64,000 nt of DNA from an uncultured Opitutales bacterium (GTDB lineage Bacteria > Verrucomicrobiota > Verrucomicrobiia > Opitutales > CAYWEO01), in NCBI GenBank assembly GCA_964457855.1, contig CAYWEO010000001.1, positions 81,747 to 145,746 of the forward strand. The letters run 5' to 3'. Below the pieces are notes generated by a model. That model saw nothing but the letters and a program-made list of their open reading frames with translations. It searched no databases and was not told the DNA's origin. Shown here piece by piece: positions 4,826-55,249 of this stretch (positions are counted from its first letter, which is position 1; each line of letters starts with the position of its first letter). The translations under genes and the position numbers were made by a program.

Positions 4826-5548
4826 ATGTCAGGACATAGCAAATGGGCCACCACCAAGCGACATAAGGCGGTTATCGATTCAAAGCGCGGAAAAATCTTT
4901 AGTATCCTCGGCAAGGAACTCACCCTAGCGGCGCGCGACGGAGGCGGCAACCCGGAGTTCAATACACGCCTAAGGATGTTGATGGCCAAGGCAAAAGAGT
5001 CCAATATGCCCAACGATAACATCGATCGCGCGATCAAAAAAGGGACTGGCGAGTTGGAAGGCTTCACGATCGAACAAATTGTTTACGAAGGCTATGCCCC
5101 AGGTGGAGTTGGTGTCATCATCGAGGTCACCACTGACAACAAAAACCGCGCAGCTTCCGAGGTTCGCAGCACTTTGACGAAATTCGGCGGCACTCTCGCC
5201 GGCGCTGGCGCTCTCGCCTTCAATTTTCAAAAGAAAGGACAGTTTCTCATCGATGCCGAAGGTGTTTCCGAGGACGCTTTGATGGAACTCGCCCTCGAAC
5301 ATGGCGCCGAAGACGTCAAAAACAACGACGACCACTTCGAAGTCCTCTGCCCCGTCAAAGACTTCTACGCCCTCTCGAAAGCCTTCGAAGAGAAGAAAAT
5401 CGCCGTCGAATCCGCAGAACTTACCTACATCCCAAGTACCCAAACCGCTGTTACTGACCCCGAAATTGCCCAAAAAATCCTCAAACTCGTCGAAAAACTC
5501 GAAGAGCTTGAAGACGTCAAGGCCGTCTTCACTAATTTGGCGCCGTAG
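4826..5548 (+). CDS. yebC: YebC/PmpR family DNA-binding regulator
   Basis: Full-length match to the family pattern (MSGHSKWATTKRHKA...NIDRAIKKG). Confidence 0.9.
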   Translation: MSGHSKWATTKRHKAVIDSKRGKIFSILGKELTLAARDGGGNPEFNTRLRMLMAKAKESNMPNDNIDRAIKKGTGELEGFTIEQIVYEGYAPGGVGVIIEVTTDNKNRAASEVRSTLTKFGGTLAGAGALAFNFQKKGQFLIDAEGVSEDALMELALEHGAEDVKNNDDHFEVLCPVKDFYALSKAFEEKKIAVESAELTYIPSTQTAVTDPEIAQKILKLVEKLEELEDVKAVFTNLAP

Positions 5549-5551
5549 AAA

Positions 5552-5668
5552 CCGCGTCGCTTTTGAGCGGCGAGTTCGTTGCGCATTGTTCTCAATGCCA
5601 TCACGTACTACAGTACGCTCAGGCATCTCGGCCTCGCGCGCCTGCTCGTCATCTCAAAATCGAAGCGG
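5552..5668 (+). repeat. F2 long-hairpin repeat, subtype a
   Basis: Left end CCGCGTCGCTTTTGAG and right end CTCAAAATCGAAGCGG are complementary at 14/16 positions. Apex TCACGTAC-TACA-GTACGCTC. Starts 3 nt after the yebC stop. Confidence 0.85.
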
Positions 5669-5683
5669 TTTCTGCTCAGACAA

Positions 5684-5822
5684 GGGACTTCCGAACCTTT
5701 CAAAGAAAAGTCATATCGGAAGGCATTTTTGTGGCACAGAGTGCCAAAAAATGCCTTTCGAATTAAGAGTTTTTTTGGAAAGGGTACGGGAAAACCTATT
5801 TTTGCAAAAAATGGTTTTCCCG
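5684..5822 (+). repeat. F1 triple-hairpin mosaic repeat (A truncated; B, C intact)
   Basis: Right half of A only (about 5684-5710). B 5717-5760 (apical stem GTGGCAC/GTGCCAA). C 5787-5822. Confidence 0.85.
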
Positions 5823-5871
5823 TATAAAAATAGTTGATTCTCGTGAAAAAATATCTACTTTAGTCAGGATC

Positions 5872-10132: not shown

Positions 10133-10138
10133 ATAGAG

Positions 10139-10309
10139 CCGGGAAAACCATTTTTTACAAAAATAGGTTTTCCCGGACCCTTTCCAAAAAAATCTTTGTT
10201 CGGAAGGCATTTTAGTTCGGCCTGTAAGGCCGAACTAAAATGCCTTCCGATATCGCTTTTCTTTGGAGGGTTCGGGAACCTTTCTGTTCTTGGAACAGAA
10301 AGGTTCCCG
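10139..10309 (-). repeat. F1 triple-hairpin mosaic repeat, full copy (C-B-A on top strand)
   Basis: C 10139-10176. B 10201-10249 (apical stem AGTTCGGCC/GGCCGAACT). A 10273-10309. C starts 6 nt after the helicase stop. Confidence 0.9.
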
Positions 10310-10368
10310 AAAGAAAAGTTTCCGAATGCCATTGACAGCTTTGACAGAAACGGGTCATATAGATAGTC

Positions 10369-10504: not shown

Positions 10505-10762
10505 ATGAAAAAGGAAGGTCATCCAAAGCTTAACGCGGTTTGTTTTAAAGATGTTTCCACTGGGAAGCGGTTTCTGGTGCGTTCGGCGATGCGTTCGAAG
10601 CAGACAGAAGTCATTGATGGAGAGGAGCATTTCCTAGTGATTCGTGATGTTACGTCGGATTCGCATCCTGCGTACACGGGAGAGAAGAGGTTTGTGGATA
10701 CTGCGGGCAGAGTCGAAAGCTTCAACCGTAGGTATAAACGCCGTGGCGATTTTGAGCGCTAG
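10505..10762 (+). CDS. rpmE: 50S ribosomal protein L31, type B
   Basis: MKKEGHPKLNAVCFKD...DVTSDSHPAYTG with no CxxC pair. The last codons and the stop lie inside the first F2 unit. Confidence 0.85.
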   Translation: MKKEGHPKLNAVCFKDVSTGKRFLVRSAMRSKQTEVIDGEEHFLVIRDVTSDSHPAYTGEKRFVDTAGRVESFNRRYKRRGDFER

Positions 10763-11063
10763 GGTTCCGTTACAAGAAAACTTCAACCCCGTCACGTATT
10801 TCAATACGCTCGGGGGTTAAAATTTTCTTGTAGCCGTCCCTATCATCTCAAACTTACCACGGCGTCTCCGTTAGGCTAGGGTATTTCGTGCGCCTGCTCG
10901 TCATCTTAAATTTAGAGCAGTAACTGTCGCGTGAGTGCATAAATTTTCTTGCAGCCGTTCCTATCATCTCGAACTGACTACGGTGTCATGCGTCTGGTCG
11001 GCGTAAGTGCGCTCAGAGGTTAAGGTATTTCGCGCGCCTGCTCGTCATCCTAAGATCGAGGCC
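10739..11063 (+). repeat. F2 subtype-b copy (10739-10864) followed by a patchwork of F2 arm fragments
   Basis: Unit 1 is flanked by CGCCGTGG/CCACGGCG. Downstream are fragments such as GTGCGCCTGCTCGTCATCTTAAAT, TTTTCTTGCAGCCGTTCCTATCATCTCGAAC and CGCGCGCCTGCTCGTCATCCTAAGATCG. Confidence 0.8.
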
Positions 11064-12408: not shown

Positions 12409-12444
12409 ATAAAAAAAACGGCGGAAAGACTCCGCCGTTTTTTT
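12409..12444. promoter_or_regulatory. symmetrical terminator-like hairpin in the divergent region upstream of the permease gene
   Basis: A-run + ACGGCGG-AAAGACT-CCGCCGT + T-run. It reads as an intrinsic terminator on both strands and lies about 75-105 nt upstream of the permease ATG. Confidence 0.5.
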
Positions 12445-12616
12445 GTGACATTGATTTTGTTTTAGAAAACAACACCCCCTGGCGGATCTTTGACCTCACC
12501 GCTATAATAATAAGCACTAGAGAATTGCTTTAAAAACATGAAAAATAAATGTACGTATGCAATGAGATTTGTCAATAGGGAAAAATGTATTCTTAGTCTA
12601 GGGCCTTATAAAAATT

Positions 12617-12782
12617 CCGGGAACCCTTCTTTTCGAAGAAAAGAAGGGTTCCCGGGCCCTCCTAAGAAAAGCATATCGAAAGGCATTTTTGTGGCACGAA
12701 GTGCCAAAAAATGCCTTCCGAACGAGAGTTTTTTTGGAAAGGGTCCGGGAAAACCTATTTTTGCAAAAAATGGTTTTCCTGG
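12617..12782 (+). repeat. F1 triple-hairpin mosaic repeat, full copy (A-B-C)
   Basis: A 12617-12655. B 12677-12720. C 12745-12782. Sits in a divergent promoter region. Confidence 0.9.
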
Positions 12783-12869
12783 AAAATACCCTCCTTTCCC
12801 GAAAAACTTTTCTACAAAGCAACAATTTTGGTTGCAATTTTCGTCTAACGGGGGAATAATTCAAGGATT

Positions 12870-13724: not shown

Positions 13725-15182
<1,458 letters not shown>

Positions 15183-15231
15183 TATTTCGGTTCTTTTTTT
15201 GCTTGGCTGCGTTGTGCCCCTTTGTTCAAAG

Positions 15232-15377
15232 ATGGACTGCTTCGATTTTGAGATCACGGGCAGGCGCGCGAGGTCGATTGGAGTGAGTGCCTCTGCTCCA
15301 CTCCAATCCCCTAATGCCTGAGATGGCATTGAGACAGATGCGCAACGAACCCGCCGCTCAAAATCGAAGCAGTCCAT
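15232..15377 (-). repeat. F2 long-hairpin repeat, subtype a with substituted apex
   Basis: Perfect 21-bp terminal inverted repeat ATGGACTGCTTCGATTTTGAG / CTCAAAATCGAAGCAGTCCAT. The centre carries a different 10-bp hairpin (GATTGGAGTG...CACTCCAATC). Confidence 0.9.
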
Positions 15378-15423: not shown

Positions 15424-15594
15424 ATGGCAAGAGAAACGATTATTTTGGAGTGTACGGAGGCGAGGAAGGAAGGGAGGCCGCCATCTCGTTACATGAGCAC
15501 GCGCAACAAGAAACTTCAGACCGAGAAGGTTGAGAAGAGGAAGTATAATTGGTTTTTGCGGAGGCATACCCTCCATCGTGAAATCAAGGACTAA
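15424..15594 (+). CDS. rpmG: 50S ribosomal protein L33 (Cys-poor form)
   Basis: 56-codon ORF below the track cut-off: MARETIILECTEARKEGRPPSRYMSTRNKKLQTEKVEKRKYNWFLRRHTLHREIKD. Only one of the four Zn-ribbon Cys positions is retained. Confidence 0.85.
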   Translation: MARETIILECTEARKEGRPPSRYMSTRNKKLQTEKVEKRKYNWFLRRHTLHREIKD

Positions 15595-15598
15595 AAAG

Positions 15599-15718
15599 AA
15601 GGGCTCCTGTTTGAGCGGCAAGTGCGTTGCGCATCGGATCTCGCTGCCATCACGTACGTTAGTACGCTCAGGCATCTTGTCCTCGCGCGCCTGCTTGTCA
15701 TCTCAAACGGGAGCCCTT
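15599..15718 (+). repeat. F2 long-hairpin repeat, subtype a
   Basis: Flanks AAGGGCTCCTGTTTGAG / CTCAAACGGGAGCCCTT match at 16/17 positions. Apex TCACGTAC-GTTA-GTACGCTC. Starts 4 nt after the rpmG stop. Confidence 0.9.
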
Positions 15719-15765
15719 CTTTGGTCTTTTGCTCTTTGGAGGAAAGACAGTCAGAGTTTATAGAA

Positions 15766-15935
15766 CCGAAAAAACCATTTTTTATAAAAATAGGTTTTCC
15801 AGGACCATTTCCAAAAAAATCTTCATTCGGAAGGCATTTTTCAGGCAGTATAATGCCTGAAAAATGCCTTCCGATATCGCTTTTCTTTTGAAGGTTCGGA
15901 AATTTATTCTTTTCTCTGGAAAAGAAAAGTTTCCG
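15766..15935 (-). repeat. F1 triple-hairpin mosaic repeat, full copy (C-B-A)
   Basis: C 15766-15803. B 15828-15873 (apical stem CAGGCA/TGCCTG). A 15897-15935. Confidence 0.9.
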
Positions 15936-15948
15936 AAATATTTCTCCT

Positions 15949-15965
15949 CTCGCCGCTCAAAATCG
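15949..15965 (-). repeat. solo F2 terminal fragment
   Basis: CTCGCCGCTCAAAATCG is the reverse complement of the F2a left end CGATTTTGAGCGGCGAG. It lies 5 nt from the stop of the 15971-16624 gene. Confidence 0.7.
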
Positions 15966-15970
15966 AGGCC

Positions 15971-16624
15971 TTACTTCTTTGGGATGCGGAGTTTCAGGGT
16001 ATAATCCTGATCTTTATAGAAGGTTTCCATCTTTGAGAAGTCGCTATTTGTGGGGAGCTGGAAGCGTTTGGTAAGTTTGCCTTCTTCTACTTTTCGGCTG
16101 ACGATTTTCCCGAGGACGTCTTTTTGGATCGATTCTTCGCGGAAGCTGCCGTCGATTTGGAGTTCGTGGGTTTTGGCGTAGGTGGTGATACGGATGCTAT
16201 CTTTTAGGATATTGGGGAGAAATTTGATTTTAATGGTGTAGGCTTTTTGATCGGCGCTTTTTTGGATTTTTCTGAGCCAGGTGATGGAATTGGGGTCGAG
16301 GTTGTCGAAATCTTGGATTTTCCTCAAAAATTCTTTCATTTGTTGGAAAGTGACCTGCATTTGGGAGGTATCCGTATGGATGTTTGGGGCGCGATTAGAT
16401 CTAAAGTGCTTAATTTTCGTGCCTTTGCAGGCCCGTTTTTTGCCTTTTGGTTTTTCTTTGGTTGCGGCCTTAACTGCCGTGTCTTTTGCCTTAGGCGTGA
16501 GGGTTTCTTGGCCATTTTGGCCATCTGGGGCGATCGGCTGGTCGGCGGCGTAGGAAGGCGCTTGGAAGCCGAGAATGAGGGCGGCGGAAAGGGCCTTGAC
16601 GGCGAGTTTTAAATGGGGGTTCAT
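15971..16624 (-). CDS. exported protein, possible Hsp20/alpha-crystallin-like C-terminal domain
   Basis: Signal-peptide-like N-terminus (KLAVKALSAALILGFQAPSYA), then a Lys-rich linker. The C-terminal ~100 aa has a pattern reminiscent of the ACD fold (...IRITTYAKTHELQIDGSFREE...FQLP...YTLKLRIPKK). The family call is tentative. Confidence 0.5.
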   Translation of the reverse strand: MNPHLKLAVKALSAALILGFQAPSYAADQPIAPDGQNGQETLTPKAKDTAVKAATKEKPKGKKRACKGTKIKHFRSNRAPNIHTDTSQMQVTFQQMKEFLRKIQDFDNLDPNSITWLRKIQKSADQKAYTIKIKFLPNILKDSIRITTYAKTHELQIDGSFREESIQKDVLGKIVSRKVEEGKLTKRFQLPTNSDFSKMETFYKDQDYTLKLRIPKK

Positions 16625-16921: not shown

Positions 16922-18454
16922 ATGAGTACGTTTACAAAGCCGGCAGAAAATCATCAATTTTCTAAGTTACGTTCTATCTTCTTTCCGATACATACCTATG
17001 AGTTAAAGAAAGCGCTTCCAATGGGGATGATTTTTTTCTTTATCTTGTTCAACTACACATGTTTACGTAACGTGAAGGATGCCCTCGTGGTTACGCATAC
17101 GGGCGCAGAGGCATTGTCATTTTTGAAACTCTTTTGCGTGATGCCATCGGCTATTATCTTCATGTTGATGTATGCAGGCGCCAGTAACATTTTGAGCAAC
17201 GAAAAGTTGTTTTATTTTACGCTAACGCCCTTTATCGTGTTTTTCGGCCTATTCGCCTTCTGGATTTACCCCAATCGTGTGATGCTGCATCCGGCTCCCG
17301 AAACGATTGTGGCCTTGCAGACCGCTTACCCCTCATTGCACTGGTTTTTCGCGATTTTTGGCGTGTGGAGCTACGGAATGTTCTACGTTTTGGCAGAAAT
17401 TTGGGGAAGTGCTATCCTTTCACTGTCTTTCTGGCAGTTTGCGAACCAGATCACGCACATGAAAGAAGCCAAGCGCATGTACGCGTTTTTCGCCATTATG
17501 GCGCAATTTTCGTTGATTCTTTCGGGTATGTGGGGAGAGCATTTCTCAGATATTCGTTCGACGGTCTCATCCGGAATGGATCCCTGGCAGATTTCCCTTA
17601 ACTGGTTAATGGGCGCAGTCGTTGTGTGCGGTGTTCTGACGATGTTGATTTATCGCTGGATCTATCGCTGCGTCCTCACCGACAAGCGTTTTTACGATAA
17701 GCCAGAAATGCCCGGCGTTACCAAGAAAAAGAAAAAAGCAAGCCTCATTGAGAGCATGAAAGTCATCTTTTCCTCCCCATACCTTGGTCTCATCGTAGCC
17801 CTCGTTGTCGCCTACGGAATTACTGTAAACCTCATTGAAGGCCTCTGGAAGAGCCAATTGGAGGTCAAGTACCCGAATCCCAACGATTATAACACGTTTA
17901 TGAACCAGTACAGTCAATGGACTGGGTACGCGTCGATCGTCATTATGATCGTTGGTAGCAACATATTACGTCTCTTCCGTTGGTTTACGGCGGCCGTCAT
18001 CACGCCTCTCGTTTTCCTCGTTGGCGGTATCCTTTTCTTCACTTTCATTCTCTTTAGGACAGAACTCGGCAACATAATTGCTGGATTCGGCTCCAATCCC
18101 GTCACAATCGCTGTGTTTTTGGGTGTCACTGTTCTCGTTATCGCGAAATCCACTAAGTACGCCTTGTTCGACCTAACGAAGGAGATGGCTTACATCCCCC
18201 TCGACGAGGAAATGAAGGTCAAAGGTAAGGCCGTTGTTGACGTCGTTGGCGGACGCCTCGGCAAGTCCGGTGGCGCAGGATTCCAAGTCTTCCTCTTCCA
18301 ACTCGGTGGCTGGATCCTCAGCGCAAAGGTCACGTACACCCAAATTGCCCCCTACGCTTTCGGTTGCTTCCTCGTCATTACCGTCATTTGGATCGTCGCC
18401 GTGAAGTCCCTAAGTAAGCGTGTGGATGCCGCCAGCCAAGTCGCTGGCGAGTGA
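16922..18454 (+). CDS. ATP/ADP (nucleotide) translocase, TLC/NTT family
   Basis: 510-aa polytopic protein with the characteristic N-terminus (...FFPIHTYELKKALPMGMIFFFILFNYTCLRNVKDALVV...), as in the nucleotide transporters of Chlamydiae and Rickettsiales. Confidence 0.9.
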   Translation: MSTFTKPAENHQFSKLRSIFFPIHTYELKKALPMGMIFFFILFNYTCLRNVKDALVVTHTGAEALSFLKLFCVMPSAIIFMLMYAGASNILSNEKLFYFTLTPFIVFFGLFAFWIYPNRVMLHPAPETIVALQTAYPSLHWFFAIFGVWSYGMFYVLAEIWGSAILSLSFWQFANQITHMKEAKRMYAFFAIMAQFSLILSGMWGEHFSDIRSTVSSGMDPWQISLNWLMGAVVVCGVLTMLIYRWIYRCVLTDKRFYDKPEMPGVTKKKKKASLIESMKVIFSSPYLGLIVALVVAYGITVNLIEGLWKSQLEVKYPNPNDYNTFMNQYSQWTGYASIVIMIVGSNILRLFRWFTAAVITPLVFLVGGILFFTFILFRTELGNIIAGFGSNPVTIAVFLGVTVLVIAKSTKYALFDLTKEMAYIPLDEEMKVKGKAVVDVVGGRLGKSGGAGFQVFLFQLGGWILSAKVTYTQIAPYAFGCFLVITVIWIVAVKSLSKRVDAASQVAGE

Positions 18455-18455
18455 T

Positions 18456-18573
18456 ACAGGGCGATTTTGAGCGGCGAGTTCGTTGCGCATCAGTCTCAAT
18501 GCCATCACGTACGTTAGTACGCTCAGGCATCTCGTCCTCGCGCGCCTGCTCGTCATCTCAAAATCGCCCCTGT
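18456..18573 (+). repeat. F2 long-hairpin repeat, subtype a (best-preserved copy)
   Basis: Flanks ACAGGGCGATTTTGAG / CTCAAAATCGCCCCTGT. Apex TCACGTAC-GTTA-GTACGCTC. Starts 1 nt after the translocase stop. Confidence 0.9.
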
Positions 18574-18602
18574 CTCACGCGTTGGCTTTAGCGGTCAGTA
18601 AA

Positions 18603-18775
18603 CCGGAGGAGGTGTTTTTTGCAAAAAGCACCCCCTCCGGACCTCTCCCTTAAAAACTCTTAATTCGAAGGGCATTTTCATTCGGCCTGTAAGGCCAAAT
18701 GAAAATGCCCTTCGATATGCTTTTCTTTGAAGGGTTCGGGAAACATTTCTTTTCTTCGAAAAGAAAGTTTCCCGG
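18603..18775 (-). repeat. F1 triple-hairpin mosaic repeat, full copy (C-B-A)
   Basis: C 18603-18640 (stem variant CCGGAGGAGGTG/GCACCCCCTCCGG). B 18666-18714. A 18737-18774. Confidence 0.9.
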
Positions 18776-18790
18776 ATATTCCCTTTCTTC

Positions 18791-23945: not shown

Positions 23946-24011
23946 GAACAAAGACAATTGCGCGACGTTAACGCAAAGTCAATGTCTTTTGGTGGGAAGG
24001 AGAGGTGGGAA

Positions 24012-24186
24012 CCGGAAACTTTTCTGTTCCAGAACAGAAAAAGTTTCCGGACCTTCAAAAGAAAAGCGATATCGGAAGGCATTTTTGCGCGGCCTATAAG
24101 GCCGCACAAAAATGCCTTCCGAATTAAGAGTTTTTTGGGTGAGGAAGCCGGGAAAACCAATTTTTGCAAAAAATGGTTTTCCCGGC
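24012..24186 (+). repeat. F1 triple-hairpin mosaic repeat, full copy (A-B-C)
   Basis: A 24012-24050. B 24073-24121 (apical stem GCGCGGCC/GGCCGCAC). C 24147-24186. C ends 3 nt from the proS stop. Confidence 0.9.
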
Positions 24187-25698: not shown

Positions 25699-25761
25699 AA
25701 ACGTTAATCATTATAAGGCCGTAAGAAAATAGCTAGCTTTTTTTGGGGGAGGGGGTGTTTT

Positions 25762-25929
25762 CCGGAGAACCATTTTTTTGCAAAAAATTGGTTCTCCGGA
25801 CCTCTCCAAAAAAAACTCTCGTTCGAAGCGAATTTTTGAGGCACGTAGTGCCACAAAAATTCGCTTCGATACCGCTTTTCTTTTGAAGGTTCGGAAACTT
25901 CTTCTTTTCTTCGAAAAGAAAAGTTTCCG
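25762..25929 (-). repeat. F1 triple-hairpin mosaic repeat, full copy (C-B-A)
   Basis: C 25762-25799 (stem CCGGAGAACC). B 25824-25868, with basal stem CGAAGCGAATTTTT/AAAAATTCGCTTCG changed on both arms. A 25892-25929. Confidence 0.9.
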
Positions 25930-25949
25930 AAATTATTTTCTTCAACCCC

Positions 25950-47500: not shown

Positions 47501-48238
47501 ATGGTTTTAGACAACAATGCCCTTTTAATGTACGACCGAGCACTGTGCGCGGATGCTGGCCTAGTCGGTGTTGATGAAGCCGGCAGGGGGGCTCTGGCGG
47601 GACCGGTTGTTGCTGCTGCTGCTTGGGTAAAACAAGATTTTTACGACAAAGAACCCGAGGAATGCAAAAAAGTGCGCGATTCCAAAACCCTTCCCGCGCT
47701 TACCCGCGAAAAATTGTTCAATCAGTTTGTTTCCTGGGAGCAAGAAGGGCTTATTGCCTTTAGTTGGGCCCAGGCAAGCGTCGTCGAGATAGACGTCTGT
47801 AACATCTTAGGCGCCACACACTTAGCAATGAGGCGGGCTCTAGACGTTCTTGCTAGCAAACTCCCCAAATCCCTCTGCCTCGAACCCCAAATCAATGCCG
47901 ATCTTGACGACAACGACGCTGCAGAATGGCTCGGAACCCGTACCCCCCTCCGCATTCTCGTCGATGGACCTCCCGTCAAACCCTTTGACTACAAACACGA
48001 AGGCGTTATTTCCGGCGACAAAAAAAGCTTCGCTATCGCCCTGGCCTCGATCGTCGCCAAAGTCTCCCGCGACTGCCTCATGCTCGAACTCGACTCCCTC
48101 TACCCCGCCTACGGATTTGCCAAACACAAAGGCTACGGGACCCCCGAACACTCCGCCGCCATCCTCAAGCACGGCCAAACGGACGAACATAGGTCCCTAT
48201 TTTTGACGAAACTTTTCTCAAGGAGAGGGAAAGAGTAG
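47501..48238 (+). CDS. rnhB: ribonuclease HII
   Basis: VGVDEAGRGALAGPVVAAA and the ...DSKTLP... motifs. Confidence 0.9.
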   Translation: MVLDNNALLMYDRALCADAGLVGVDEAGRGALAGPVVAAAAWVKQDFYDKEPEECKKVRDSKTLPALTREKLFNQFVSWEQEGLIAFSWAQASVVEIDVCNILGATHLAMRRALDVLASKLPKSLCLEPQINADLDDNDAAEWLGTRTPLRILVDGPPVKPFDYKHEGVISGDKKSFAIALASIVAKVSRDCLMLELDSLYPAYGFAKHKGYGTPEHSAAILKHGQTDEHRSLFLTKLFSRRGKE

Positions 48239-48245
48239 GTTTTTT

Positions 48246-48411
48246 CCGGAGGGGGTGTTTTTTGCAAAAAGCACCCCCTCCGGACCTCCCCCTTAAAAAC
48301 TCTCGTTCGGAAGGCATTTTTTGGCACTTCGTGCCTAAAAAATGCCTTCCGATGCCGCTTTTCTTTTGAAGGTTCGGAAACGTTTTCTGTTCTGGAACAG
48401 AAAAGTTTCCG
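48246..48411 (-). repeat. F1 triple-hairpin mosaic repeat, full copy (C-B-A)
   Basis: C 48246-48283. B 48308-48351 (apical stem GGCAC/GTGCC). A 48375-48411. C starts 7 nt after the rnhB stop. Confidence 0.9.
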
Positions 48412-48433
48412 AGTCTCACCAACCAAAAACAAT

Positions 48434-50276: not shown

Positions 50277-50316
50277 GTCGCTGTTACCGAAAGATTTTGA
50301 GATCATCCCATCTCCA

Positions 50317-50350
50317 CCCCCCGGACGCAAGTTCGCGGGGGTTGTTTTTT
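50317..50350 (+). terminator. candidate intrinsic terminator after rpsT
   Basis: CCCCCG-(12-nt loop)-CGGGGG followed by TTGTTTTTT. Confidence 0.45.
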
Positions 50351-53700: not shown

Positions 53701-53830
53701 AAAAGAGGCCGTTGGGCGGCCGGGGAAACGCCGGTTTTTGGGCTATTGAAACGCGACGGATTAGCGGCTCTATCCTAAAATCGGGTAGTTAATTTTACTT
53801 TTTGATGGGATTGAGCCAAATTTTTATATT

Positions 53831-53908
53831 CGGAAGGCATTTTTCTGGCACATAGTACCAGAAAAATGCCTTCCGATATGCTTTTCTTTGAAAGGTTCGG
53901 AAAAAATC
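53831..53908 (-). repeat. F1 mosaic repeat, partial (B + half of A)
   Basis: B 53831-53875 (apical stem CTGGCAC/GTACCAG). The spacer and left half of A extend to about 53908. Confidence 0.8.
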
Positions 53909-53942
53909 ACGGCGTTTGAGCAGTTTTTGAAAAACCGCCTTT

Positions 53943-54045
53943 GTTTTAAGATGACGGGTAGGCGCGCGAGAATTTTAACCCTCGAGCGTACTAACGTACG
54001 TGAGCGGGGTTGAAATTTGAGCGCAACACCCCCGCCGCTTAAAAC
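53943..54045 (-). repeat. F2 long-hairpin repeat, chimeric a/b copy
   Basis: Termini GTTTTAAG/CTTAAAAC. Apex CGTAC-TAAC-GTACG. The outer arm is F2a-like (GACGGGTAGGCGCGCGAG) and the inner arm is F2b-like (GGGGTTGAAATTT). It overlaps the tsaC stop codon. Confidence 0.8.
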
Positions 54046-55049
54046 AAACGCGGGGTTTCAAAAACTTGCGCGCGCGAGATGCGGTCATTGATGGCCATAC
54101 CAATGCCGGCGTTGGGGGCTTTTTGCATGAAGATGGCGTGGAAGTTTTGCTGATCGAGGGTTTGGAGGAGGTGGAAGAGATTGGAGGCGGCGAGCTCGAA
54201 GGTATCGGAGGGTTCTGCAAGCCAAAAGGTATCGATATGGGGGGCTTTTTGGATCGATTTTGGGCGAAAGTAGTGGACGACGGCTATTTTTTGGTGGGTA
54301 GCGATAGGAATGTCGTAGGCATCGGCGATGTTGGGGAGGAGCTTGAACGTTGTGGAGGGGCTGTAATGTTTTTTCATGAGGCCTGGCGCGATGTAACCAT
54401 ATTCAGGGGAACTACTTACGTGTCGATGGATAGTGTGACCCAGGATGGCTTCGATGGCTTCTTGTGTGATGGGACCTGGGCGAAGGATGGTGATGGGAGC
54501 GTTTTGACGCACATCGACGATTGTGGATTCAAGTCCAAAGGCACAAGGGCCTCCGTCAACGATAACACTAACGCGTTCCCCCAGAGAGACTTGCACGTGT
54601 TCTGCGCGTGTGGGGCTGATGTAGCCAAAGGGGTTCGCGCTTGGGGCGGCAATGGGTTCACCGAAGGCTGCCAAAATTTCGCGAAAAATGGGATGTTTTG
54701 GGCAACGGATCGCAACACTGGGCTTTCCCGCCGTAACGATGTCCGGGACAACGCCGATTGTTTTGTCCATCACGAGCGTGAGGGGACCCGGCCAGAAGGC
54801 ATCGATGAGGATAGACGCACTTTCGGAAATGCTAGTGACAAGGGGTTCAATCCAGCCAACATCCAAAACGTGGACGATGAGGGGGTCAATCAACGGACGT
54901 CCTTTAACCGCAAAGATTTTTCTGACGGCTTCTTCCCTCAGGGCGCCACCAGCCAATCCGTAAACAGTTTCCGTCGGCAACGCAACAACATCGCCACGCT
55001 TCAAGGCTCCAACGGCCAATGCAATGCCTTCTTGAGGTGGGAGAATCAT
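54039..55049 (-). CDS. tsaC: L-threonylcarbamoyladenylate synthase (Sua5/TsaC, two-domain form)
   Basis: YrdC-domain motifs (VALPTETVYGLAG, KGRPLIDPLIVHV) plus the Sua5 C-terminal domain. Confidence 0.85.
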   Translation of the reverse strand: MILPPQEGIALAVGALKRGDVVALPTETVYGLAGGALREEAVRKIFAVKGRPLIDPLIVHVLDVGWIEPLVTSISESASILIDAFWPGPLTLVMDKTIGVVPDIVTAGKPSVAIRCPKHPIFREILAAFGEPIAAPSANPFGYISPTRAEHVQVSLGERVSVIVDGGPCAFGLESTIVDVRQNAPITILRPGPITQEAIEAILGHTIHRHVSSSPEYGYIAPGLMKKHYSPSTTFKLLPNIADAYDIPIATHQKIAVVHYFRPKSIQKAPHIDTFWLAEPSDTFELAASNLFHLLQTLDQQNFHAIFMQKAPNAGIGMAINDRISRAQVFETPRLF

Positions 55050-55080
55050 GGGGAGGGTGGAGGAAGGAGGAGGAATTATT

Positions 55081-55249
55081 CGGAAACTTTTCTGTTCCAG
55101 AACAGAAAACGTTTCCGAACCTTCAAAAGAAAAGCGGTATCGGAAGGCATTTTTGTGGCACGGAGTGCCAAAAAATGCATTCCGAATAAAAATTTTTAGG
55201 GGGAAGGGTCCGGGAAACCCCCTTTTTTATAAAAAAGGGGGTTTCCCGG
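55081..55249 (+). repeat. F1 triple-hairpin mosaic repeat, full copy (A-B-C)
   Basis: A 55081-55117. B 55141-55184. C 55210-55249 (stem CCGGGAAACCCCC). C ends 4 nt from the lpdA stop. Confidence 0.9.

Follow-up and report, generated by a model that had tools for sequence, protein, structure and literature searches.

A gene-end hairpin repeat with copy-specific complementary flanks in an uncultured Opitutales bacterium

F2 copies and their gene context

The window, i.e. the whole 64-kb stretch of DNA analysed, encodes housekeeping genes of a PVC-type bacterium, including those for a TLC ATP/ADP transporter, sigma-54, DciA, Suf and Clp proteins. It contains seven full copies (A to G) of F2, a hairpin-forming, imperfectly palindromic and non-coding repeat with a core of ~100 nt that is typically located directly 3' of stop codons; six of these had been listed earlier, and copy G is added here. 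The genes upstream are those for YebC (A), TLC (B), L33 (C), L31 (E), enolase (F) and Sua5 (G), and a gene at 15971-16624 precedes a truncated copy. F2 has the orientation of the upstream gene in all of these, its 5' end being placed between -10 and +15 nt relative to the stop codon, and copy D is the exception. In copies A, B and F the stop codon forms part of the hairpin base, as does coding sequence in E and G, and in three window or Bacteroides genes the stop codon is supplied by the element itself.

F2 is characterized by conserved ends, (GA)TTTTGAGCG at the 5' side and ATCTCAAAA(TC) at the 3' side, a conserved apical stem-loop TCAC-GTAC-N4/5-GTAC-GCTC (apex TCACGTAC-N4/5-GTACGCTC), and the conserved unpaired motifs CGTTR on the 5' arm and GCC(T) on the 3' arm. 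The helices between these motifs differ in sequence by subfamily with pairing kept; A, B, C and D constitute subfamily 1, E and F subfamily 2, and copy G is a mosaic that combines a subfamily 1 base and apex with a subfamily 2 mid-stem. The sequence GATTTTGAG occurs 12 times in the window versus 1.5 expected. Conservation fades gradually outwards, GCYTCGA-TTTTGAG being common to A, D, the truncated copy and a fragment at 11035.

Copy A (5547-5673, + strand; core 5561-5659) has arms of 21 nt that are 90% complementary (5547-5567 and 5653-5673; AGAAACCGCGTCGC/TCGAAGCGGTTTCT) and start within the TAG stop codon (5546-5548) of the YebC-family gene. Copy E of subfamily 2 (10738-10865, + strand; core 10750-10853) carries the arms CGCCGTGG (10739-10746) and CCACGGCG (10857-10864), a pair seen by sequence reading and in the fold and overlooked by the inverted-repeat finder. 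Its left arm is L31 coding sequence; the L31 gene (10505-10762, + strand) ends inside F2, with its TAG stop codon (10760-10762) in GAGCGCTAG. Three degenerate F2 3' halves (repeat families D12 and D13) lie downstream of copy E (10866-11062, + strand), one of which repeats the right flank of copy E (ACTGACTACGGTG).

Copies F and D form a tandem. Copy F (15045-15184, + strand; core 15063-15166) is framed by CTAAGGACGG (15047-15056) and CCTTCCTTAG (15173-15182), which pair with one mismatch, and its left arm includes the TAA stop codon of the enolase gene (15048-15050) together with the last base of the final codon. Copy D follows in second place and is reversed (15232-15377, - strand; core 15246-15363). 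Its copy-specific arms are ATGGACTGCTTC (15232-15243) and GAAGCAGTCCAT (15366-15377), its apex motif is deleted, and it contains an extra hairpin at 15276-15308 that is unique within the window. The perfect 21-bp inverted repeat reported here by the original prediction is exact, as the inverted-repeat finder recovered ATGGACTGCTTCGATTTTGAG (15232-15252) and CTCAAAATCGAAGCAGTCCAT (15357-15377) with 100% complementarity over 21 nt.

The arms of copy C (15595-15722, + strand; core 15609-15708) begin at the base right after the L33 stop codon (15592-15594), extend over 15595-15615 and 15702-15722 (21 nt, 95%), and lie in flanks that consist of an A-tract, a GGGCTCC stem and a T-rich tail. Copy B (18448-18581, + strand; core 18465-18563) has fully complementary arms of 13 nt (18459-18471 and 18557-18569) and additional outer arms (18448-18461 and 18568-18581, 86%), which together span the TGA stop codon (18452-18454) of the gene for the TLC ATP/ADP transporter and extend into its coding end. 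Copy G (53922-54066, - strand; core 53944-54044) has 22-nt arms with three mismatches. Its left arm is formed by the last seven codons of the Sua5/TsaC gene (54039-55049, - strand), whose TAA stop codon (54039-54041) falls in the F2 5' terminus TTTTAAG. As the L31 and Sua5/TsaC stop codons are inside F2, the last residues of both proteins are encoded by flank arm and repeat. The truncated F2 5' end (GATTTTGAGCGGCGAG, 15944-15964, - strand) is positioned 8 nt past the stop codon of the gene at 15971-16624 (- strand) and adjoins a copy of the second repeat family of the window. A 13-nt fragment of an F2 end, reversed (GATTTTGAGATCA), was also noticed within 50293-50340 beside a plain GC hairpin with a T-run; the S20 ORF upstream of it has an unusual length of 180 aa, the S20 domain occupying residues 2-81 only.

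Among the ORFs of the 64-kb window scanned against Pfam, none encodes a transposase, a REP-associated tyrosine transposase (RAYT) or a reverse transcriptase, and no longer element bounded by F2 ends was found in the window or in the fetched loci. Neither a sharp terminus nor a direct target-site duplication was detected at the F2 copies, whose flanks are inverted complements, and no common sequence lies immediately beside them. The cores of copies A and B are identical at all but 5 of 99 positions, and their flanks have nothing in common. Since mobility enzymes are missing from the window and target-site duplications from the copies, it is this multi-copy near-identity that suggests F2 may be mobile.

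The second, more abundant repeat family comprises three hairpins, CCGG-N7-TTTTTTGCAAAAA-N7-CCGG, TCGGAAGGCATTTT...AAAATGCCTTCCGA and GGAAACTTTTCTTTTC..., and is found at 5680-5825, 10133-10310, 12600-12810, 15760-15940, 18600-18780, 23990-24185, 25755-25940, 31917-32115, 45650-45770, 48246-48420, 53830-53907, 55058-55245 and 61364-61560. It starts 3-8 nt past stop codons, and its inner arms vary between copies with complementarity kept, like the F2 flanks. The window also encodes seven tandem paralogous ORFs of 230-350 aa without Pfam match (32118-38771, - strand), several of which have near-identical start regions (repeat family D17). Furthermore, the adjacent genes 46373-47482 and 47501-48238 both encode an RNase HII domain, and the former has an added DUF3378 domain and hence looks like RNase HIII.

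Flank pairing and relatives in other bacteria

Every full copy of F2 folds into a single long hairpin that continues into its copy-specific flanks, with minimum free energies (MFE) of -53 to -81 kcal/mol and z-scores of -5.6 to -12.4 compared with dinucleotide shuffles (copy F: MFE -75.3, z -12.4). That the flanks differ between copies yet pair within each copy, as originally proposed, was confirmed for all six copies listed earlier and for copy G. Copy-specific flank pairing is real and general across the family. Pairing of the first 10 flank positions was tested in 15 independent copies, seven from the window and eight relatives elsewhere, with a null in which the left flank of one copy was matched to the right flank of another (210 pairings). 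On average 7.7 Watson-Crick pairs were observed versus 2.9 in the mismatched null, and at least 7 of the 10 positions were paired in 13 of the 15 copies (the exceptions being loci L010 and L011) versus 7 of the 210 mismatched pairings (3%). In six of the seven window copies pairing begins at the element junction without unpaired loop remnants, which is not predicted by simple insertion into a loop of 3-8 nt.

The T-rich stretch said to follow the flanks often is clear 3' of copies C, D, F and G, weak at A and missing at B and E. The flanks of C, G, F and D resemble terminators composed of A-tract, GC-stem and T-tract, and the long composite F2 hairpins were not called by a terminator consensus scan. 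The composite hairpin probably still acts as a putative terminator or as a structure protecting the transcript 3' end. A plain bidirectional intrinsic terminator was noted at 12412-12444 (AAAAAAACGGCGGA-GTCTT-TCCGCCGTTTTTTT) and another plain one after the S20 gene, indicating that the genome uses simple hairpins styled like several of the F2 flanks.

A pattern composed of the F2 base and apex matched at least four genome loci, in Bacteroides, Bacteroidales metagenome-assembled genomes (MAGs) and a Polyangiaceae MAG, and at least four metagenome contigs. The CGTT and GCC(T)TG motifs, which are absent from the search pattern, are also conserved in the matches (alignments A2 and A3), arguing that these are homologous and not due to chance. 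Copy-specific complementary flanks are present in the relatives (e.g. GTAAACTTA/TAAGTTTAC, stop codon included) except for L010, L011 and two Polyangiaceae copies, the latter simply having a longer shared stem. Bacteroides arms are AT-rich, unlike terminator stems. An earlier scan of viral sequences by pattern gave no match; a search with the apex only identified long hairpins in viral contigs, several of them after a HK97-type major capsid gene in alphaproteobacterial prophage or gene transfer agent (GTA)-like clusters. Relatives of this alpha type also follow ordinary genes on replicons of Allorhizobium, Sphingobium, Phyllobacterium and Shinella in a plasmid collection, and in five of five copies of the alpha family examined the element starts with the stop codon of the gene. 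One Klebsiella plasmid carries an F2 variant with a covaried apex stem, and the E. coli genomes searched yielded no match to the F2 family.

No Rfam model reached its gathering score over the window, where only generic miRNA-hairpin models appeared far below threshold, and Rfam likewise gave no match for alpha-type copies. No F2-like family was found in the literature searched by sequence words. The FopS small RNAs of Bacteroides were considered and set aside as unrelated, being 65-70 nt long with a single-stranded seed. Judged from the matches, F2 is a member of a widespread superfamily absent from the catalogues searched.

Among the relatives, L009c arose by recombination between types a and b, and the arms of L123 and L124 extend over 27-35 nt, far beyond ordinary terminator stems. 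Comparison of L131 with L130 revealed variable yet complementary shells between conserved shells, which goes beyond what target-derived stems explain. As a separate observation, the gap between ybeY and gidA in Bacteroidales (L134-L139, ~1260-1700) contains a tandem array of a ~85-nt palindromic unit (GTCCGTGAAGGTATAT...ATATACCTTTACGGAC), whose copy number appears to range from ~2 to 6 among metagenome strains with identical YbeY.

Element-free gene ends and co-evolving arms

Because the collections contain nothing closely related to the window organism, element-free sites were compared for homologous elements in other genomes. The nearest real relative of the window enolase is 73% identical, and the enolase is closest, at ~72%, to Verrucomicrobia and Lentisphaerae. 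Exact matches to the protein are same-strain contigs only, which end inside F2, and an exact look-up of the L33 protein returned no record. An 893-bit match was rejected as a close relative, being a Kuenenia enolase with a duplicated domain.

In element-free orthologous gene ends a hairpin at the same place is usual, as observed for ybeY, dmpG and the capsid gene. The expectation that empty sites in relatives carry hairpins was borne out at these three gene ends and failed at a promoter-side site in Bacteroides, where element-free L024 has the left arm GAAAACTG and lacks its complement, so that no hairpin is present. Element-bearing Bacteroidales (L009, L022 and L023) show the arrangement GAAAAAATGG-element-CCATTTTTTC at the ybeY gene end. 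An element-free lineage has a perfect 14-bp hairpin instead (AAGACCTGTTTTTA-GTTTTTG-TAAAAACAGGTCTT, z -6.5), the left arm of which consists of the same last codons and stop codon as in the element-bearing genomes, and element-free L024 has a weak hairpin only, with the stop codon in the loop. The C-terminus of YbeY reads KKWF* with the element versus K/A-T/A-CF without it and matches the right arm, so the coding arm has changed along with its partner.

Three element-free Sphingobium strains (88-90% identity) possess a simple GC hairpin 7-8 nt past the dmpG stop codon. This hairpin is gone in the filled allele, where the arms of the element abut the stop codon and are common to Shinella copies at other loci. 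At this site the pre-existing hairpin is replaced and not split, and it is not made of the flanks of the element. An initial assignment of the outer stem of L124 as homologous to the Sphingobium terminator stem was withdrawn, as the same arms occur in Shinella copies elsewhere.

The HK97-type capsid locus was compared across 80 related contigs; plain terminators are found in the distant relatives, and closer relatives have either an F2-type element or a different palindromic family. The last two to three capsid codons switch between synonymous sets with the element (GCT TCG TGA versus GCG AGC TGA/TAA), indicating that the intergenic module, including the stem codons, is exchanged as a unit. 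The different palindromic family (CCCCCACCTAGCCTCCCCCTG...AGGGGGAGG...) was seen just past the capsid stop codon in L045, L049, L052, L053, L061, L066, L076, L083, L084 and others, and in these alphaproteobacterial GTA-like and prophage contigs the slot downstream of the capsid gene acts like a swap site for hairpin elements.

Several further candidates for informative sites were discarded. The apex-less hairpins of capsid loci L057, L059 and L113 differ by the exact segment between direct repeats GCTCCGGTGCTC; these were rejected as a target duplication because they fit apex deletion as well as insertion, and the repeat is itself nearly palindromic. The region upstream of a 1172-aa gene in L023 versus L009 was not retained as a clean empty site, since a deletion between two direct 5' ends suffices to explain it, and the zinc-peptidase locus of L007 was uninformative because the downstream region of the 97% relative is unrelated.

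The hairpin arms co-evolve, coding arms included. In the alignment of eight copies from the capsid locus (A4, 152 columns), 92% of cells are paired, versus 30-40% once the partner column is shifted by 1-3 positions, and 22 of 51 pairs have undergone double changes, a number reached by none of 500 shuffles. Stop codons covary with their partners (TGA with TCA, TAG with CTA), as do the preceding codons, where GGCGC/GCGCC versus GCCGC/GCGGC entails a change from Gly to Ala; one-sided G.U-type intermediates are rare. Compensatory change at the hairpin base, which had been named earlier as the alternative to insertion into a hairpin, is thus seen in relatives of F2. Oppositions of the G.U and A.C types are equally frequent (31 each) in F2 and the relatives nearest to it, and the folding energies of the sense and antisense strands show no consistent bias. 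The symmetry therefore looks like a DNA-level property, although the orientation of the element tracks transcription, and selection of the structure at the RNA level was dropped as an explanation.

Known systems and the origin of the flanks

F2 is placed here among the small palindromic repeats and outside the named families compared, of which RIME is set beside it by description only. REP, REPIN and BIME palindromes are mobilised by RAYT (Y1) transposases, whose genes usually have REPs on either side, a REPIN being a ~100-nt hairpin of two inverted halves. F2 resembles them in being short, multi-copy, hairpin-forming, extragenic and located right after genes. However, it lacks a GTAG or CGTC head, the conserved tetranucleotide that marks the foot of the 20-40-bp REP palindrome, has the termini (GA)TTTTGAG and CTCAAAA(TC), and possesses a conserved apical motif and internal loops, and no RAYT is encoded in the window. 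To our knowledge, copy-specific complementary flanks are not a described feature of REPs. REP families are tagged GTAG or CGTC, and their termini often overlap coding regions and donate stop codons (PMC3733652). Alpha-type relatives of F2 start with TAGG and end with CCTA, a mere resemblance to the GTAG head.

With miniature inverted-repeat elements (MITEs), F2 shares a similar size, inverted termini and a long hairpin. MITEs such as Correia/NEMIS and ERIC are non-autonomous elements of 100-150 nt with terminal inverted repeats that form long transcript hairpins in transcribed intergenic regions. F2 differs in that its flanks are inverted and not direct repeats, a direct target-site duplication is missing, its ends are fuzzy, and no related autonomous element was found in the window or the fetched loci. 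Insertion sequences such as IS1397 and ISKpn1, and members of the IS110 family, insert into REP hairpins and thereby provide a precedent for mobile DNA targeting the loop or tip of an extragenic hairpin. However, they are protein-coding, 1-1.5 kb long and target one repeat family, whereas F2 is non-coding, ~100 nt long and found in hairpins of unrelated sequence.

The analogies drawn earlier with class C group II introns and the IS200/IS605 family proved loose, as neither architecture is present in F2. Both systems rely on stem-loops in DNA, or on single-stranded DNA, to recognise targets or ends. The class C introns are six-domain ribozymes of at least 600 nt that insert after, not in, terminator stems, whereas F2 is a single hairpin of ~100 nt inside a stem and has no Rfam intron match. 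IS200/IS605 elements carry tnpA/tnpB genes or separate subterminal hairpins at their left and right ends, recognise hairpins in their own ends and target tetra- or pentanucleotide motifs, not hairpins, whereas F2 consists of one hairpin without an ORF and without common adjacent sequence. Integron attC sites are imperfect palindromes of 57-141 nt located after or overlapping the stop codon in one orientation, with conserved unpaired bases and variable helices. F2 is likewise found at or over stop codons in gene orientation and has conserved unpaired motifs and variable helices, but it lacks the RYYYAAC/GTTRRRY core sites, no integrase gene is nearby, and its neighbours are housekeeping genes (enolase, L31, L33, YebC, TLC and Sua5), not cassettes. 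The Rhizobium-specific intergenic mosaic elements (RIME) are palindromic intergenic repeats of Rhizobiaceae (Osteras et al., 1995, as cited in PMC2873474). By that description they are comparable in that Rhizobiaceae also host alpha-type F2 relatives.

We hypothesize a combined model, to which we give an even chance of being correct, in which the element is lodged at the tip of a hairpin at a gene end and co-evolution of the hairpin base continues. Each copy would take the tip of a local, terminator-like hairpin at a gene end, and its flanks would be the stem of that hairpin. Insertion, by entry or by tip replacement, would be directed by structure, with a putative enzyme, probably supplied in trans, acting on folded single-stranded DNA. 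The composite hairpin might be symmetrised afterwards by removal of small mismatches beside long perfect stems; quasipalindrome correction is known to favour small internal mismatches between long perfect stems. Such ongoing symmetrisation would account for the missing loop remnants, and compensatory or hairpin-templated change may let the arms co-evolve even if one of them codes. The proposal that F2 sits in the loop of a pre-existing terminator-like hairpin thus survives in part. It is favoured by the hairpins at element-free ybeY, dmpG and capsid sites and by the terminator-like flanks of C, G, F and D, and it is weakened by the dmpG hairpin, which is not made of the flanks, by the L024 site without complement and by the missing loop remnants.

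The long arms of L123 and L124, the missing loop remnants, the variable shells of L131 and L130 and the L024 site favour two other origins. The first, which we consider possible but unlikely, is that F2 lands near a stop codon in ordinary sequence and the hairpin base is made at or after insertion, either by inverted copying of one flank through fold-back priming or intramolecular template switching at the long hairpin, or by selection and hairpin-templated correction that lengthen the stem outwards up to coding sequence. Pairing that starts at the junction, the left arm of L024 without a complement and arms that exceed ordinary terminator stems or, in Bacteroides, are AT-rich unlike such stems would all fit this origin. 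The same applies to the coding left arms of E, G and L009b, the pairing of copy B up to the coding end, the strong arm covariation in orthologous copies, and the variable complementary inner shells in F2 relatives and in the second repeat family of the window. However, a base made after insertion is at odds with the hairpins at the same place in element-free orthologues, and it does not by itself explain the T-run ends of several right arms or the landing within 15 nt of stop codons. Template switching that extends the stem outwards would also lack homology to steer the return step.

The second, which we regard as improbable, is that F2 is an old gene-end resident, a cis-acting 3'-end structure without recent transposition or hairpin targeting, whose outer stems drift slowly by compensatory change while gene conversion keeps the cores similar. 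The gradual outward decay (GCYTCGA-TTTTGAG in A, D, the truncated copy and the fragment at 11035), the mosaic copies (G and L009c), the strong covariation and the occurrence of the same kind of element after the capsid gene of diverged phages are consistent with such a resident. Against it, copies A and B have nearly identical cores with flanks that share nothing, element similarity departs from the capsid phylogeny, as L040 and L042 have a base in common that is absent in L029, presence and absence differ among closely related strains, and truncation and tandem arrangement characterise mobile or recombining repeats. That the pairing arises by chance or from base composition in short GC-rich sequence beside a palindrome, as the short single arms of 7-8 nt (E, and B as first listed) might suggest, is refuted by the excess of paired flanks in 13 of the 15 copies over 3% of mismatched pairings and by the fold z-scores.

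Returning to the combined model, F2 and its relatives could, tentatively and with more doubt than confidence, represent a new class of structure-targeting mobile hairpin distributed over at least three phyla. A putative trans-acting enzyme would recognise the invariant apex and the unpaired motifs, and gene-end hairpins of any sequence would receive the element at their tip or have the tip replaced by it, with stop codons and C-termini being reshaped; in a variant, insertion itself would make the inverted duplication of the target. If hairpin tips are targeted, small non-coding repeats could spread without gene disruption, landing where a hairpin is already tolerated and leaving a longer one each time, and they would rewrite the stop codons and last residues of housekeeping proteins, as the ends of L31, Sua5 and YbeY lie within the element. 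The apex common to PVC bacteria, Bacteroidota and Alphaproteobacteria, with the Klebsiella plasmid variant, points to a putative protein partner or to a shared host function at mRNA 3' ends. Being missing from Rfam, the F2 family goes unannotated, and it breaks short-read assemblies, as Logan contigs stop inside F2.

One further complementarity was noted within copy F. Its left flank ATGCTAAGGACGGC (15044-15057, with the enolase stop codon) is complementary at 12 of 14 positions to the inner 3' arm of F2 (15146-15159), for which ~0.05 chance matches were estimated, and which could hint at an older F2-like hairpin source.
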